Of a DNA stretch of 8,183 nucleotides, positions 1-7,460 are shown in pieces (the first letter of the stretch is position 1; every line of letters begins with the position of its first letter). Both the position numbers and the translations under genes were made by a program. Under the pieces are notes generated by a model that had not been told where the DNA came from, ran no database searches, and worked only from the letters and a program-made list of their open reading frames with translations. The stretch comes from a virus (taxonomy: Duplodnaviria > Heunggongvirae > Uroviricota > Caudoviricetes): IMG/VR virus record IMGVR_UViG_2778261512_000016; one strand, written 5' to 3'.

Positions 1-431
1 CCATGGAGACGACATTCGTGCTGGATGCACTGGAGCAGGCGTTATGGGCCCGTCGACCGTCCGGCACGGTCCATCACAGTGATAAAGGTTCTCAGTATGT
101 ATCGCTGGCCTACACACAGCGGCTTAAGGAAGCCGGATTACTGGCATCAACAGGAAGTACAGGCGACTCGTATGACAACGCGATGGCGGAGAGCATCAAT
201 GGTCTTTACAAAGCGGAGGTAATACACCGTAAGAGCTGGAAAAACCGTGCAGAAGTGGAACTGGCCACACTCACGTGGGTGGACTGGTATAACAATCGAC
301 GATTGCTGGAAAGGCTGGGCCATACTCCTCCGGCAGAAGCAGAAAAAGCTTATTATGCTTCCATCGGAAACGATGATCTGGCAGCCTGAGTTCACAGATA
401 AAACACTCTCCAGGAAACCCGGGGCGGTTCA
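1..431 (+). mobile_element. 3' portion of an IS629-type (IS3 family) insertion sequence; the element continues beyond the left window edge and its terminal inverted repeat ends at 431
   Basis: Transposase OrfB C-terminus in frame at 3..389. The minus strand at 409..431 reads TGAACCGCCCCGGGTTTCCTGGAGAG, matching my recollection of the IS629/IS1203 terminal inverted repeat. Not database-verified. Confidence 0.75.
3..389 (+). CDS. IS3-family (IS629-like) transposase OrfB, C-terminal fragment (5' end lies outside the window)
   Basis: The translation carries the C-terminal part of a DDE integrase-core domain (HHSDKGSQYVS ... DSYDNAMAESINGLYKAEVIHRKSW ... TWVDWYNNRRLLERLGHTPPAEAE), the pattern of IS3-family OrfB. 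The ORF is open from the window edge and stops with TGA at 387..389. Confidence 0.9.
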   Translation: METTFVLDALEQALWARRPSGTVHHSDKGSQYVSLAYTQRLKEAGLLASTGSTGDSYDNAMAESINGLYKAEVIHRKSWKNRAEVELATLTWVDWYNNRRLLERLGHTPPAEAEKAYYASIGNDDLAA

Positions 432-1640: not shown

Positions 1641-1674
1641 AGATTAGCTTTTTTTTGAGTGTTTGGAGAGTAAA

Positions 1675-2370
1675 ATGTTAGAACCACCAAAGAGTTATAA
1701 TGAAATGTTGCCTATGCTCCATAAGGCGACTTTTATTACTACATTTATATTTTACCTATCATTAGTCATTTATGGCTACATGCCATTGGTTGGCATTAAT
1801 GCCAAGTATATCCCCCCCGTTAAAGACTACGAGGAATTTATTAAATGGATATTAACCTTTGGCATATTACCAATTGCATCTTCAGTTTTTTGGTCAGTAA
1901 TTAGTGGAGCTTTAGATCTACATAATAATGTAGCAAAAATTATTGGAATAAGGAAGATGTGGGATAGTCATTTAATTATTAAACCATTAGCAAAAATTGC
2001 AGGCGTTACGAGAAAATTAACTACTGATGAATCTCACAAGGTAATGAGTAAACTGTATTACCCAGAAGTTAAAGAGTTAAAAGACAAACATTACGTTGAA
2101 CTTTTCTGGAACAAAGTTTATTACTTTTGGGTTTTCTTTGAACATACAGTAATCGCATTTGTTACTATTTTAATAATAAGTATCGCCAAATTAACAAATA
2201 TATTCTCTGTTACTGGCTCTTTAATTAATCTTTGGTTGTGGATTATTTCTCTTGTCGCATTTGACTTCCTTATTTTCATAGCATCAGTTAAACCAAGAAC
2301 AGAAAGCCAAGTAAGACAAATACCTGATAGCAAAATAAAAGAATTCTTTAACAATAACAATATTTTTTAA
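1675..2370 (+). CDS. Hypothetical integral membrane protein, 231 aa, four predicted TM helices (two N-terminal, two C-terminal, separated by a charged soluble region of about 65 aa)
   Basis: ATG at 1675 with GGAG at 1665..1668 (the listed ORF starts at an upstream TTG at 1663). Hydrophobic segments: ATFITTFIFYLSLVIYGYMPLVGI, FIKWILTFGILPIASSVFWSVISGAL, FWVFFEHTVIAFVTILIISIAKL, VTGSLINLWLWIISLVAFDFLIFIASV. Low-GC codon usage. No family recognised by eye. Confidence 0.65.
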   Translation: MLEPPKSYNEMLPMLHKATFITTFIFYLSLVIYGYMPLVGINAKYIPPVKDYEEFIKWILTFGILPIASSVFWSVISGALDLHNNVAKIIGIRKMWDSHLIIKPLAKIAGVTRKLTTDESHKVMSKLYYPEVKELKDKHYVELFWNKVYYFWVFFEHTVIAFVTILIISIAKLTNIFSVTGSLINLWLWIISLVAFDFLIFIASVKPRTESQVRQIPDSKIKEFFNNNNIF

Positions 2371-2382
2371 ACGAGGTTGATT

Positions 2383-3036
2383 TTGAATTACAAAATAAAT
2401 GGAATAAACATACGTTCAGAAAATGCAGCGAAACCGCACACTATGCCATCTAACTATCTCTGTAAACAGATTGAAAGCACTAATAAAAATGGCAATGCCC
2501 TTGATTTTGGATGTGGAAAACTTAGATATTCAGAACAATTAGTAAATAAATTTGAAACTGTGACATTTTTAGATTCCAGAAGACAACTAGAAAGAGTGCA
2601 AATTATCAGAGGTGTACAAACCACGATTCCAGATTACGTGATAAATAACTATAAGAATGCTAATATTGTTTCTTATGAAAATATAGATAAAATAACAAAT
2701 CATTATGATTTCATACTTTGCGCAAACGTGCTTTCCGCAATTCCATGTGAATCCACAATTCACAAAGTCCTCAGTGCGATTAGAGAATTATTAAAGAGTG
2801 ATGGTGAAGCACTGATTGTCAATCAATACAAAAGTTCTTATTTCAAGAGGTACGAGAGCGGTATTAAACATTTGCATGGGTATATATACCAAAACTCTCG
2901 CAATGCTTTCTACTATGGTTTATTAGATGTGGATACTGTAAGTAAAATATGCTCAGATAATAATTTAGAAATAATAAAATCATGGAGCAAAGCAGGTAGT
3001 TCATATGTGGTTGTTGGTAAACATATACATATTTAG
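2383..3036 (+). CDS. Class I (Rossmann-fold) SAM-dependent methyltransferase-like protein, about 217 aa; not a DNA methyltransferase by motif content
   Basis: Motif I LDFGCGKL, acidic post-I residue in TVTFLD, motif II HYDFILCANVLSAIP, motif III LLKSDGEALIV. No DPPY/NPPY-type catalytic motif or target-recognition domain. Start is uncertain: TTG at 2383 sits 6 nt after GAGG (2373..2376); alternatives are TTG 2377 and ATG 2443. It begins 13 nt after the upstream stop, so it is probably co-transcribed or translationally coupled. Confidence 0.65.
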   Translation: MNYKINGINIRSENAAKPHTMPSNYLCKQIESTNKNGNALDFGCGKLRYSEQLVNKFETVTFLDSRRQLERVQIIRGVQTTIPDYVINNYKNANIVSYENIDKITNHYDFILCANVLSAIPCESTIHKVLSAIRELLKSDGEALIVNQYKSSYFKRYESGIKHLHGYIYQNSRNAFYYGLLDVDTVSKICSDNNLEIIKSWSKAGSSYVVVGKHIHI

Positions 3037-3350
3037 TTTATTTCAACAAATTATTAGAAAGAGTGATTTGCTTGTTAATTATTAGCTCGGCAGTGCCGGA
3101 TCAACATGACCCTGCCACTTAGGCCATTGCCGGTTTACCTACTTTTGTAAGGTTCAGCATGAAGTTTTTATATACTCTTCCTAATATCAATAGTGATGCT
3201 CGCTTATGTTAGCTGCTTCTTGTACATAGTAGCCTTCTCCGACAGTACTGCAATGAGCGGAGAGTAAAAGTCGATAAACAATAAGGAGGTTCACAATAAA
3301 TATTTCTCGGTGAAACTTTCAAAGCATTCTCTGTTTTGCTAAATCGACAA

Positions 3351-4250
3351 TTATAAATCAACAACATTTAGTGTTATATCAATATTATTTAGCCTTGCAA
3401 TCTCTGATGAATCACTTGCTATTTTAGCTTTTAATTTATCAATATTAATCATATCTTCATGGCTTATATAAACCATATCACCTTGGTTAACTTTAGATTT
3501 GTTCACTATGGCTTGAATAACAGACAAATCATCCATTACACCTCTCATAAATTTCACCATGCTTTGATCTTTGAAGTCAGATATCGATTTTGAACGTTGC
3601 TTACGTTGAATTGTTCCTTTTGTAATTACTTCATTAATTTCTTTTAAACCAGTGAGCATATCAGACAGACTGCCTTCGCAACTCATCCGATGTTTTATTG
3701 CATTGCGATTAATAATATTGAGTATAATTTCGAGTGAATCTTTATCACTCCATGGATGTAATGATGTATAATCATGATGGCGTCGAATGGCGTCAATCAT
3801 ATCCTGGACCATATCTTCATCTGCTTTATCGCAAAGTTCATTCACGAAATAGCTGGGGTCGATTATTTTACAATAACTTGGAGTTAGGTATCTTGAGGCT
3901 TTACAAAAACCAAAAATATATAAAGTAGAGTATTTATCTTTCAGACTCTCTCCTATTTCATTTATTTTCTCAAAAGATTCGATAGTTTTTTTAATTTTTG
4001 CTGGACTTGCATTCGTAGTAACTTGAACTGCTATCATGTTTTTATTATCAGCTAAATCAATGGCGGGAAAATTAACTTTAATCTGATTCATGTTTACCAG
4101 TTCACTCATTTTCAGCGCGCGAAACATAAAGATGGTCAATGACTCAATTATTCTTTCCATGTCATGAAAGCCTGCCTGTTTGCGTTGCGCGATATAAAGC
4201 TGGAGTAGTGCAATATCACTCTGTAAGTTTCTAATAAGTGGATCAATCAT
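3351..4250 (-). CDS. Hypothetical 299-aa protein; the N-terminal region resembles what I recall as the SMEK-type domain (NFPAIDLADNKNMIAVQVTT ... KIKKTIESF) and the C-terminal alpha-helical region contains an R-x4-H motif (RNAIKH) compatible with a HEPN-like RNase
   Basis: Long minus-strand ORF with ATG at 4250 and AAGGA 9 nt upstream; AT-rich codon usage matching the neighbouring cargo genes. Domain assignments are from memory and motif inspection only. Confidence 0.6.
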   Translation of the reverse strand: MIDPLIRNLQSDIALLQLYIAQRKQAGFHDMERIIESLTIFMFRALKMSELVNMNQIKVNFPAIDLADNKNMIAVQVTTNASPAKIKKTIESFEKINEIGESLKDKYSTLYIFGFCKASRYLTPSYCKIIDPSYFVNELCDKADEDMVQDMIDAIRRHHDYTSLHPWSDKDSLEIILNIINRNAIKHRMSCEGSLSDMLTGLKEINEVITKGTIQRKQRSKSISDFKDQSMVKFMRGVMDDLSVIQAIVNKSKVNQGDMVYISHEDMINIDKLKAKIASDSSEIARLNNIDITLNVVDL

Positions 4251-6433: not shown

Positions 6434-6647
6434 TGTTCAACCGCCCCGCCCGCTTCGTCTTACGATATTCATCATAAACTTTGGGATCATACTGAAGCTC
6501 CCCGCCAGATGCCTCCTGTAGACGCATCGCGCGACCTTCGGGAACTAAATCCCCTTTCCAGCTATAAAGCGAAGCCAAACGAATACCTGCTGCTTGTGCA
6601 AGTTTTGTTTTTGAACCGAAATACAAAAGAGCGTCAGTTTTAAGCAT
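6417..6647 (-). CDS. dicC: Cro-like HTH regulator DicC (76 aa)
   Basis: Translation MLKTDALLYFGSKTKLAQAAGIRLASLYSWKG ... matches my memory of DicC/YdaS-type Cro-like proteins. AAGGTG lies 6 nt upstream of the ATG at 6647. Divergent from dicA. Confidence 0.85.
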   Translation of the reverse strand: MLKTDALLYFGSKTKLAQAAGIRLASLYSWKGDLVPEGRAMRLQEASGGELQYDPKVYDEYRKTKRAGRLNNENHS

Positions 6648-6661
6648 TTAAAACACCTTTA

Positions 6662-6709
6662 TTGTTAGTCATGACTAACAAAATAGATGTTAACAAAAAC
6701 ATAGTCAAT
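6662..6709 (-). promoter_or_regulatory. dicC promoter with overlapping operator: perfect 20-bp palindrome TTGTTAGTCATGACTAACAA (6662..6681)
   Basis: Minus strand: -35 TTGACT (plus coords 6704..6709), 17-bp spacer, -10 TATTTT (6681..6686). The palindrome lies immediately downstream, over the predicted start. The dicA promoter in the same intergenic region could not be placed confidently. Confidence 0.55.
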
Positions 6710-6730
6710 ACGATTTAGCATTAGCTAACT

Positions 6731-7138
6731 ATGGAAACAAAAAATTTAACTATCGGCGAACGCATTAGGTATCGTCGGAAAAACCTCAAACACACCCAAA
6801 GGTCTCTTGCTAAAGCCCTGAAAATCTCCCATGTGTCTGTATCACAATGGGAACGGGATGATAGTGAACCTACAGGGAAGAACCTTTTTGCCCTCAGCAA
6901 AGTATTGCAATGCTCACCAACATGGATTCTATTTGGCGATGAAGACAAGCAACCAACACCACCTGTTGAGAAGCCAGTTGCCTTATCCCCCAAAGAACTA
7001 GAGCTCCTTGAGCTGTTTAATGCACTGCCAGAATCAGAACAGGATACCCAGCTCGCCGAAATGCGAGCTCGAGTAAAAAACTTCAATAAACTCTTTGAAG
7101 AATTACTAAAAGCCCGTCAGCGGACAAATAAAAGATAA
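6731..7138 (+). CDS. dicA: CI-like HTH (XRE-family) repressor DicA, 135 aa
   Basis: Translation METKNLTIGERIRYRRKNLKHTQRSLAKALKISHVSVSQWER ... matches my recollection of E. coli DicA (135 aa). HTH in the N-terminus; divergent from the cro-like gene. Confidence 0.9.
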   Translation: METKNLTIGERIRYRRKNLKHTQRSLAKALKISHVSVSQWERDDSEPTGKNLFALSKVLQCSPTWILFGDEDKQPTPPVEKPVALSPKELELLELFNALPESEQDTQLAEMRARVKNFNKLFEELLKARQRTNKR

Positions 7139-7160
7139 CATCATCAATGAGTTATCTTTT
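7133..7160 (+). terminator. Weak hairpin overlapping the dicA stop (AGATAAC - 11 nt loop - GTTATCT, then TTT); possible attenuating terminator
   Basis: 7-bp AT-rich stem with a short U-run; weak. K-12 dicA is thought to read through into the ydfABC-dicB operon, so this may be only a partial terminator or nothing. Confidence 0.2.
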
Positions 7161-7171
7161 ACCACATCAAT

Positions 7172-7227
7172 CATGTTAGCCATAACATACAAAATTACTT
7201 GACCTATATGTTAGCCATGGCTAATCT
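7172..7227 (+). promoter_or_regulatory. Promoter of the ydfA-ydfB-ydfC operon with DicA-operator-like sites
   Basis: -35 TTGACC (7199..7204), 17-bp spacer, -10 TAATCT (7222..7227). The spacer contains the perfect 14-bp palindrome TTAGCCATGGCTAA (7211..7224), and a further copy of ATGTTAGCCAT lies at 7172..7183. The half-site TGTTAG(C/T)CA matches the dicA/dicC operator palindrome. Confidence 0.45.
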
Positions 7228-7304
7228 TATTTGCATCAACACACCGCACGGTGTTCTCAGCAAACAGTTCCGCTACCCCGGCGTTAAGGGGAAATGAGGT
7301 CAAC

Positions 7305-7460
7305 ATGGATACTATCGATCTTGGCAACAGCGAATCTCTGGTATGTGGCGTGTTCCCCAACCAGGACGGTACGTTCACCGCGATGACGTATACCAAAAGC
7401 AAAACGTTTAAAACCGAATCTGGAGCGCGTCGCTGGCTGGAAAGAAATTCAGGTGGGTGA
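7305..7460 (+). CDS. ydfA: Small prophage protein, 51 aa, YdfA-like
   Basis: ATG at 7305 with GAGG 5 nt upstream (MDTIDLGNSESLVCGVFPNQDGTFTAMTYTKSKTFKTESGARRWLERNSGG). Length and position after dicA match K-12 ydfA as I recall it. The listed ORF starts further upstream at 7251. Confidence 0.7.
   Translation: MDTIDLGNSESLVCGVFPNQDGTFTAMTYTKSKTFKTESGARRWLERNSGG

Follow-up and report, generated by a model that had tools for sequence, protein, structure and literature searches.

The immunity switch of prophage Qin of Escherichia coli K-12 controls the division inhibitors DicB and DicF and shows a textbook-style lambdoid arrangement. Its repressor, DicA, is present in about 20 copies per cell (PMC7567609). 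DicA binds the operator Oc (TTGTTAGTCATAACTAACAA in K-12) in vivo, and a single A-to-C change abolishes this binding (Yun et al., 2012; PMC3441716). An EMSA with crude extract was also reported for DicA and Oc, which is the only site with published direct DicA binding (PMC3441716). Binding at Oc blocks dicC and stimulates dicA (PMC3441716). The sites Om and Oa, taken alone, showed no DicA binding in vivo (PMC3441716); since DicA by itself leaves them unbound, resemblance in sequence is no guarantee of binding. Oc is toxic on a multicopy plasmid because DicA is titrated (PMC3441716), and titration toxicity was also described for extra operator copies (bioRxiv 10.1101/2025.05.13.653802).

In assays with lacZ fusions, deletion of dicA derepressed dicBp, the promoter of the dicB operon, 22-fold, while deletion of dicC was without effect (Ragunathan et al., 2023; PMC10448788). 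DicA represses dicC as well, and three operator sequences were placed in each intergenic region in a manner similar to lambda PR and PL (PMC10448788, citing Bejar 1988). DicA possesses no Ala-Gly site and is not induced by mitomycin C; the antirepressor Rem is used instead (PMC10448788). The induction routes listed are Rem, urea or heat, or instability of the repressor (PMC10448788). The strongest ChIP-seq signal of DicC splits into two sites that bracket dicA, and a palindromic motif is enriched in the regions bound by DicC (bioRxiv 10.1101/2024.09.21.614188). In RegulonDB, the DicA-dicB interaction is held at a low evidence level with no site location given (Reg-Seq authors, PMC7567609). Our literature search revealed neither a footprint nor an EMSA published for the fragment upstream of ydfA.

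The 8183-bp stretch of DNA analysed here (the window) carries the same locus as K-12 Qin dicC-dicA-dicBp, with the same genes and site positions (Bejar, Bouche and Bouche, 1988; Yun et al., 2012). The operators of the Qin switch are already known and their arrangement has been described since 1988; the finding is a correct rediscovery. The practical gain lies in comparative data, which pin the dicB-promoter sites to 7208–7227 and 7173–7192, at the same offsets in K-12.

Genes of the immunity region

The segment 6400–7480 agrees fully (100% identity) with E. coli C7 and to 97.4%, over 1081 bp, with strain MG1655, in which the genes under the matched segment are annotated as dicC, dicA, ydfA, and ydfB. 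A match was obtained in 3878 of the 5426 complete E. coli genomes. The window is a defective, lambdoid prophage of Qin type and carries the immunity region dicC-dicA-ydfABC. Open reading frames, Pfam matches and annotated near-identical records gave the following gene order: divergent dicC and dicA, then ydfA-ydfB-ydfC. A gene of the YdaT family was identified downstream of dicC (Pfam). The names dicA, dicC, and ydfA used in the preliminary description agree with matches to HTH_3, P22_Cro, and DUF1391, respectively. The features of the region are listed in Table 1.

Table 1. Genes, promoters, operator-like sites and hairpins of the immunity region; positions are those of the window.
Feature	Position	Strand	Basis or remark
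dicC, Cro-like repressor gene, 76 aa	6417..6647	-	Pfam P22_Cro, E=1.7e-11; annotation of identical or near-identical E. coli records
Oc, primary DicA operator, perfect 20-bp palindrome TTGTTAGTCATGACTAACAA	6662..6681		spans -8 to +12 of the dicC promoter
dicC promoter: -35 TTGACT (6708-6703), 17-bp spacer, -10 TATTTT (6685-6680)	6680..6708	-	consensus promoter scan
Om-type middle site ATGTTAACAAAAACAT, weak, putative	6687..6702		82% over 17 nt like the distal ydfA-side site
Oa-type site TTAGCATTAGCTAA, putative, for autoregulation or DicC	6715..6728		adjoins the dicA start codon; TTAG-N6-CTAA match
dicA, repressor gene, 135 aa	6731..7138	+	HTH_3, E=1e-15
hairpin across the dicA stop codon, 11-bp arms	7129..7161	+	inverted repeat; RNA fold -12.2 kcal/mol, z=-5.6
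OB2, putative distal operator ATGTTAGCCATAACATACAA	7173..7192		ends 7 bp upstream of the dicBp -35
dicBp, promoter of ydfABC-dicF-dicB	7199..7227	+	-35 TTGACC 7199-7204; 17-bp spacer; -10 TAATCT 7222-7227
OB1, putative proximal operator ATGTTAGCCATGGCTAATCT	7208..7227		perfect 14-bp core 7211-7224; fills spacer and -10 of dicBp
dicB-operon leader, common to all immunity classes	7234..7304	+	includes small hairpin ACACCGCACGGTGT at 7241-7254
ydfA (DUF1391), first gene of the repressed operon	7305..7460	+	Pfam, E=5e-28; annotations

The N-terminal 65 residues of DicA align with the DNA-binding domain of the P22 C2 repressor (E=8e-20), the recognition helix included. Matches to the structures 1ADR, 2R1J, and 3JXB were obtained with phmmer (E about 1e-19), and the recognition helix reads V-x-x-S-Q-W-E-R. 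Structures of the C2 repressor in complex with its operator have been solved. The Pfam search matched the 135-aa DicA to HTH families alone; an S24 (LexA-like) autocleavage domain was not found. The protein is one residue apart from K-12 DicA: position 43 is D here and G in K-12.

The hairpin spanning the dicA stop codon is probably the 3' end or the terminator of the dicA transcript. It forms 13 perfect pairs in the divergent L002-type allele, via changes on both arms. The boundary between class-specific and shared sequence lies at 7234, the first position of the dicB-operon leader. The overall folding of this leader (7234–7304) was no better than that of shuffled sequence (z=-0.26).

Sites at the dicC promoter

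A perfect 20-bp palindrome overlapping the dicC promoter had been noticed in the dicA-dicC intergenic region, and both observations were correct. The palindrome, Oc, is the longest perfect one in the window; a palindrome of this length occurred in 1.15% of 2000 first-order Markov simulations of the window. It lies at the same distance from dicC as K-12 Oc and matches it at 19 of 20 positions, one central base being different. The overlap with the promoter involves its minus-strand -10 element. The annotated DicA site at dicCp covers -8 to +12 (Reg-Seq preprint, bioRxiv 10.1101/2025.05.13.653802). With these limits mapped onto the palindrome, position 6673 becomes the dicC transcription start, seven bases beyond the scanned -10; the published site position and the promoter scan thus agree. 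The names Om and Oa were assigned here by position and resemblance.

Sites at the promoter of the dicB operon

The promoter proposed in front of ydfA, TTGACC-17-TAATCT, is present as described. The consensus promoter scan left it uncalled, and its -10 element matches TATAAT at three of six positions. The Rfam search located DicF at 772–721 (minus strand) of an MG1655 stretch, and the 190-nt DicF precursor is known to start at transcript position 814 (PMC10448788). Back-calculation from these processing coordinates would put the dicBp transcription start at about 7229, plus or minus a few bases, assuming that 814 counts from the transcription start and that the 190-nt and 53-nt species share their 3' end. 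To within a few bases, this is where a start would be expected downstream of TAATCT.

The proximal site, OB1, contains the palindrome reported earlier (TTAGCCATGGCTAA, 7211–7224) and differs from Oc at two of 18 positions. Its right half-site CTAA provides the first bases of the -10 TAATCT. The distal site, OB2, includes the second element of the preliminary description (ATGTTAGCCAT); the element itself was recognized correctly, while its start was given one base off (7173–7183 instead of 7172–7183). OB2 has a poor right half-site with three mismatches and is centred 35 bp upstream of OB1. Both sites had been assigned to the promoter. This is true for OB1 (7208–7227) but not for OB2 (7173–7192), which ends before the -35.

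A third operator copy was not found at dicBp at up to six mismatches in 16. The inverted repeat at 7129–7161 was also considered as a third operator. Its spacing is about right (~37 bp from OB2), yet the GATAAC/GTTATC arms face the wrong way for an operator, and the repeat is better explained as a dicA 3' hairpin.

Frequency of the sites in the window

A search with the half-site motif, as suggested earlier, revealed four exact occurrences of TGTTAGYCA in the window, both strands counted, and every one of them is located in the two regulatory intergenic regions. The expected number is 0.12, and none of 2000 simulations reached four. The proposal of an operator consensus also held: the 18-bp sequence TGTTAGYCATGRCTAACA, with up to three mismatches allowed, has exactly three matches in the window (6663, 7174, and 7209) against 0.03 expected and 0 of 200 shuffles. 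Three matches were obtained with the looser core TTAG-N6-CTAA as well (6665, 6715, and 7211; 0.17 expected). Palindromes with a half-length of at least 7 were seen in 46% of simulations, that is, perfect palindromes of 14 bp are common in 8 kb. The sites on the ydfA side and the dicC side are confirmed as real and non-random.

Conservation among related prophages

A protein-guided scan of IMG/VR yielded 80 loci whose DicA shows an identity of 94% or more. After addition of the window, MG1655, and three further loci, the set comprised 85 sequences and 55 distinct haplotypes over positions 6600–7320. The following elements were invariant or nearly so in the 55 haplotypes: TGTTAG and CTAAC(A) of Oc; TGTTAG of OB2; TGTTAG and CTAA of OB1; and the central AT of each operator. 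The positions next to the central AT vary. The half-sites showed one parsimony step over 28 columns, and the outer half-sites of OB1 one change in total. The dicBp -35 TTGACC was unchanged throughout. On the dicC side, segment 6683–6730 was almost invariant; the Om-type site was unchanged in all 55 haplotypes and the Oa-type site was invariant but for one singleton. Equivalents of the Oa-type site are present at the same position in other immunity classes. The operator consensus derived from this population is (T/A)TGTTAG-YYATRR-CTAAC(A).

Absence of the palindromes from related prophages had been named as an observation that would speak against operators. Besides the half-sites kept in the 55 haplotypes, the sites were retained in two more distant loci. 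A Citrobacter locus (DicA 74% identical) has a perfect TGTTAGTCATGACTAACA upstream and, downstream, the sites AGTTAGCCATGGCGAACA and TGTTAGCTATAACTAATC, which are 36 bp apart and flank TTGCCA-17-TAATCT. A locus of Serratia rubidaea (DicA 65% identical) displays TGTAAGTTATGGCTAACA upstream as well as ATGTTAGCTATAACTCAA and AATTAGCCATGACTAACA downstream. The recognition helix ISHVSVSQWERDD of both homologues is identical to that of DicA. One upstream and two downstream sites are kept in these loci despite different flanking DNA and different downstream genes, and the counterpart of OB2 again lies 35–36 bp from that of OB1. The scan of genome contigs gave six loci, two of which encode unrelated proteins (32–39% identity) and are without the sites.

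Parallel replacement of sites in four immunity classes

In many E. coli prophages, common flanks surround another specificity module. On one side, they consist of ydaT and the C-terminal half of the cro-like gene, and on the other of the leader CATCAAGACACCGCACGG... and ydfA. Four classes were distinguished. Class 1 (DicA; the window, L001, and L002) has TTGTTAGTCATGACTAACAA (Oc) on the cro side and OB2 and OB1 on the ydfA side. The corresponding sites are TTGTTAGTTTTTTCTAACAT and TTGTTAGACCAATCTAACAA, ATGTTAGGTTATTCTAAATT in class 2 (L003 and L005); TTGAGTTTTCTCAA and CTTGAGTTTTCTCATC, AATGAGAAAACTAAATT in class 3 (L004, L006, and L008); and CTTAGATTTTCCTAAG and CTTAGGTTTTTCTACAT, CTTAGGTTATTCTAAATT in class 4 (L007).

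The sites at both intergenic regions are replaced together with the N-termini of the repressor and the Cro-like protein, while offsets and promoter geometry are kept. The proximal site on the ydfA side takes up the 17–18 bp spacer in each class and enters the -10 (TAAATT or TAATCT), behind a -35 of TTGACC or TTGCCT; throughout the classes, the two ydfA-side sites are 35–36 bp apart. The cro-side region has three sites spaced by about 23–27 bp. The best match of the cro-side operator on the ydfA side averages 3.3 mismatches over 16 positions when both sides belong to one class and 6.0 when they come from different classes. Mismatch counts of the best match were used for scoring, because counts of shared 7-mers were too noisy: classes 1 and 2 share TGTTAG, and Oc and the OB sites of the window differ at the Y position.

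This parallel replacement implies that the sites to either side of the repressor gene are set by one and the same specificity module. It is the signature of a CI/Cro-type switch and speaks strongly, if indirectly, for reading of the ydfA-upstream sites by the neighbouring regulators. DicA and DicC are not separable by this co-variation because both change between the classes.

Proposed mode of action and alternative explanations

The sites are, with high probability, the operators at which DicA and DicC silence dicC and ydfABC-dicF-dicB, as part of the lambdoid (P22-like) immunity switch of a Qin-type prophage. The suggestion that DicA represses both dicC and the ydfABC/dicB-type operon is supported, since both repressions have been published (22-fold for dicBp; PMC10448788). 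The DicA dimer would read the outer half-sites TGTTAG/CTAACA via the recognition helix of its P22-C2-like HTH domain, and the central YYATRR is most likely read indirectly. Steric exclusion of RNA polymerase is the model with the best support: DicA at Oc would cover -8 to +12 of the dicC promoter and thereby block the polymerase. At dicBp, polymerase would be excluded by occupation of OB1, which takes up the spacer and the -10; here we infer direct contact of DicA with both OB1 and OB2, for which the genetics of dicBp (PMC10448788), the ChIP-seq of DicC and the conservation of the sites give indirect support. OB2, 35 bp upstream of OB1, probably adds cooperative binding. The distance of 35 bp may be understood as one helical turn more than the 24 bp between OL1 and OL2 of lambda. 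DicA at OB1 and OB2 would keep ydfABC-dicF-dicB silent, and the Cro-like DicC would occupy these sites once the switch is reversed. As DicA is without an autocleavage domain, induction would proceed via the antirepressor Rem or via instability of the repressor.

One alternative is that the ydfA-upstream sites serve mainly DicC, as Cro-type sites, and that repression of dicBp by DicA is indirect or proceeds via a different sequence. Binding of DicC on both sides of dicA in ChIP-seq (bioRxiv 10.1101/2024.09.21.614188) and co-variation of the DicC N-terminus with the sites, which equals that of DicA, are in line with this explanation. It is improbable, however, given that derepression of dicBp follows deletion of dicA and not of dicC (PMC10448788) and that OB1 is so close to the proven DicA site, with only two of 18 positions different. 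Moreover, lambdoid switches share their operators between both proteins, so that binding of DicC is an addition to the main explanation and no true alternative. The ydfA-side sites are almost certainly shared with DicC and hence are not operators of DicA only.

Much less credit can be given to the explanation that the likeness of the ydfA-side sequences to Oc is promoter-related or due to chance, arising, for example, from the -10 TAATCT and an AT-rich spacer, with no protein bound. OB1 does overlap the -10, and perfect palindromes of 14 bp are common in 8 kb, as seen in 46% of simulations. Three matches to the 18-bp consensus against 0.03 expected, and half-sites that are invariant next to variable bases, are not accounted for in this way; furthermore, other classes swap the sites along with the repressor but keep the -35 and the -10. 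Action of the palindromes via host factors (H-NS/Cnu or YjdC) or via DNA or RNA structure, and not via phage repressors, is hardly credible: the dic locus does respond to the CnuK9E-H-NS complex and to YjdC (PMC3441716, PMC9283627) and the region is AT-rich, but these factors were described as antagonising or replacing DicA rather than as primary readers of the sites, and factors common to all strains leave the class-specific replacement of sites alongside phage repressors unexplained.

Variability of the operator centres

The operators proposed for DicA combine conserved half-sites with highly variable centres. In the 721-bp alignment of the DicA class, no columns are more homoplasic than the four positions around the central AT of each operator (YYATRR). 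The positions are 6669, 6670, 6673, and 6674 in Oc; 7180, 7181, 7184, and 7185 in OB2; and 7215, 7216, 7219, and 7220 in OB1. With a tree that left out the operator columns, the 12 centre columns accounted for 72 of 339 parsimony steps, a mean of 6.0 per site. The means elsewhere were 0.39 at 62 fourfold-degenerate sites of dicA and 0.73 at 166 other non-coding positions; the rate in the centres is thus about 15 times that of the fourfold sites. In 100,000 random draws of 12 columns, 72 steps were never reached.

All changes in the centres are transitions (47 GC-to-AT and 25 AT-to-GC), with no transversion, and all four gametes are found at adjacent centre positions. Seven different combinations of operator centres occur among 18 loci that have the same 408-bp dicA allele, and six among eight loci. 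The occurrence of many combinations with identical dicA alleles makes the pattern independent of the tree. Hot centres were also seen in class 2, at two of its three operators. In class 3 none were found; the variable columns there flank the -35 and the operators.

Two simple causes were considered. An intrinsic mutational hot spot at YYATRR or CATG is unlikely, as the sole other YYATRR of the region (6729–6734, which contains the dicA start codon) shows one step. One-way decay from C to T is rejected because changes occur in both directions.

The P22 and 434 repressors read the non-contacted centre of their operators indirectly. The constraint to purines and pyrimidines in the centres seen here would fit such a readout. 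The excess over the synonymous rate is hard to square with simple neutrality. It is conceivable, if somewhat doubtful, that the operator centres act as an evolutionary rheostat. The turnover may stem from recurrent selection on repressor occupancy, a candidate in view of the approximately 20 DicA copies per cell, the toxicity of titration and the lethality of dicB/dicF when derepressed. Another candidate is a mutational hot spot created by repressor-bound or distorted DNA. If confirmed, this unexpectedly rapid turnover of centres would provide a natural model for the tuning of repressor-operator affinity in cryptic prophages.

Comparison with known switches

The locus is closest to that of K-12 Qin. 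The Oc centre is TCATAA in K-12 and TCATGA here, which makes the palindrome perfect, and the centres of OB1 and OB2 are TCATGG and CTATAG there versus CCATGG and CCATAA here. The YdaT-like and replication genes near dicC are truncated in K-12 (ydfX pseudogene) but retained in this prophage.

The switch of P22, formed by C2 and Cro, has in common with the one described here the divergent repressor and cro genes as well as imperfect palindromic operators that overlap lytic promoters. The operator sequence is different, with 18 bp in P22 compared to 20 bp with a 6-bp centre here. Instead of the S24 autocleavage domain of C2, DicA has a short helical C-terminus. Also, two clear sites, 35–36 bp apart, and not three are present at the PL-like promoter.

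Several traits are shared with CI/Cro of lambda: a primary operator lies over the cro-side promoter, and weaker sites follow in the direction of the repressor gene; another cluster of operators is found at the leftward promoter, which drives kil-type/division-inhibitor genes; and there is positive autoregulation as well as bistability (PMC10448788). The lambda operators, however, have no detectable sequence relationship to those of the window, their centre-to-centre spacing is 24 bp and not 35 bp, and RecA-mediated cleavage has no counterpart here.

PaaR2/YdaS/YdaT of CP-933P and RacR/YdaS/YdaT of Rac are likewise switches of cryptic prophages. Their repressor is short and non-cleavable, and it is accompanied by a Cro-like protein (YdaS, DicC) and a YdaT-like gene downstream. 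They also have repeated operators at PR/PRM and at the PL that drives division inhibitors, and operator sharing by both regulators has been footprinted in regions of the CP-933P/Rac type (PMC8630535). Their repressor families and operator consensus are different (GTTTAGTAA repeats in CP-933P), and CP-933P has four equally spaced palindromes. Of the hallmarks of a lambdoid switch, the S24 autocleavage domain for SOS induction is missing from DicA, but the locus has the same operator family at PR/PRM-like and PL-like regions, overlapping core promoter elements. DicA works like the classical lambdoid repressors at the DNA level and is induced differently.

Operator centres and repressor specificity

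In each of the three DicA operators of the window, the positions of the YYATRR centre (6669-6674, 7180-7185, and 7215-7220) are hot spots of recurrent transitions, as seen in the window together with loci L015-L094 of the comparison. In the alignment of DicA-class sequences, the Y and R positions of these centres occupy 12 of the 721 columns and hold 72 of the 339 parsimony steps. Counted in such steps, their rate is about 15 times that of the fourfold sites of dicA, and up to seven different combinations of centres were found among loci with identical dicA DNA. The half-sites of the DicA operators are invariant.

The outer half-sites, TGTTAG...CTAACA, are used by DicA, which defines class 1, and by the repressors of class 2 alike, as revealed by comparison of the window with the class 2 loci L003 and L005. 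The recognition helices of these repressors are also similar (ISHVSVSQWER in DicA versus VAHVTISQWER in class 2), and the sole difference between the operators is the 6-bp centre, which is YYATRR in class 1 and T/A-rich in class 2. Since only the centres differ, either immunity specificity may reside in this non-contacted part of the operator or the two repressors may cross-react.

The dicB operon leader and the end of dicA

The leader of the dicB operon (7234-7304) is common to all four immunity classes (window and loci L001-L008). The boundary between class-specific and shared sequence coincides exactly with the predicted transcription start of this operon. The small hairpin inside the leader might be a nut- or boxB-like element or a signal for processing.

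The strong hairpin at the end of dicA is probably the terminator of this gene, insulating dicBp. In an allele of 94% identity, both arms are changed, giving 13 perfect pairs, and terminator-like hairpins occur at the equivalent place in the other immunity classes.

Features located in the window
Feature	Position	Strand	Remarks
Hok-like ORF	777-989	minus	overlapped by sok RNA
sok RNA	927-1101	minus	Rfam, 114 bits
SAM-dependent methyltransferase	2377-3036		accessory island
SMEK-domain protein, 299 aa	3351-4250	opposite to other island genes	accessory island
dicCp -10 and -35, Om, Oa	all within 6683-6730
Possible -10, TAGCAT	6716-6721		just upstream of dicA ATG
Strong hairpin	7129-7161		dicA stop codon lies within it; each arm 11 bp; folding energy -12.2 kcal/mol (z=-5.6)
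Small perfect hairpin, ACACCG-CA-CGGTGT	7241-7254		inside dicB operon leader

Other elements and occurrences

The left edge of the window (3-389) carries a truncated IS3-family transposase with rve integrase-core domains. A hok/sok-type toxin-antitoxin module is encoded on the minus strand (777-1101), and an AT-rich accessory island (1663-4250) lies between this module and the replication genes. The island also encodes a 235-aa protein with no match in Pfam, while its SMEK-domain protein matches the PADLOC model 'Aga_REase-PNTD' (E=9e-21). This island is possibly anti-phage defence cargo.

A dicA region was also found on a 2.5-kb contig that had been binned as a Collinsella MAG (L009, JAIIUG010000151.1). 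The encoded DicA is 100% identical to that of the window, and the contig almost certainly comes from E. coli DNA contaminating this bin.

The segment upstream of dicA

The 48-bp stretch that separates Oc from the start codon of dicA (6683-6730) is almost invariant among the 55 haplotypes (pi 0.012); the value for third codon positions of dicA is far higher (pi 0.095). In the window, no Shine-Dalgarno sequence precedes the dicA ATG. Given this absence and the closeness of the possible -10 element, the dicA mRNA may be leaderless or near-leaderless when translated; an mRNA of the leaderless type is likewise that of lambda cI.
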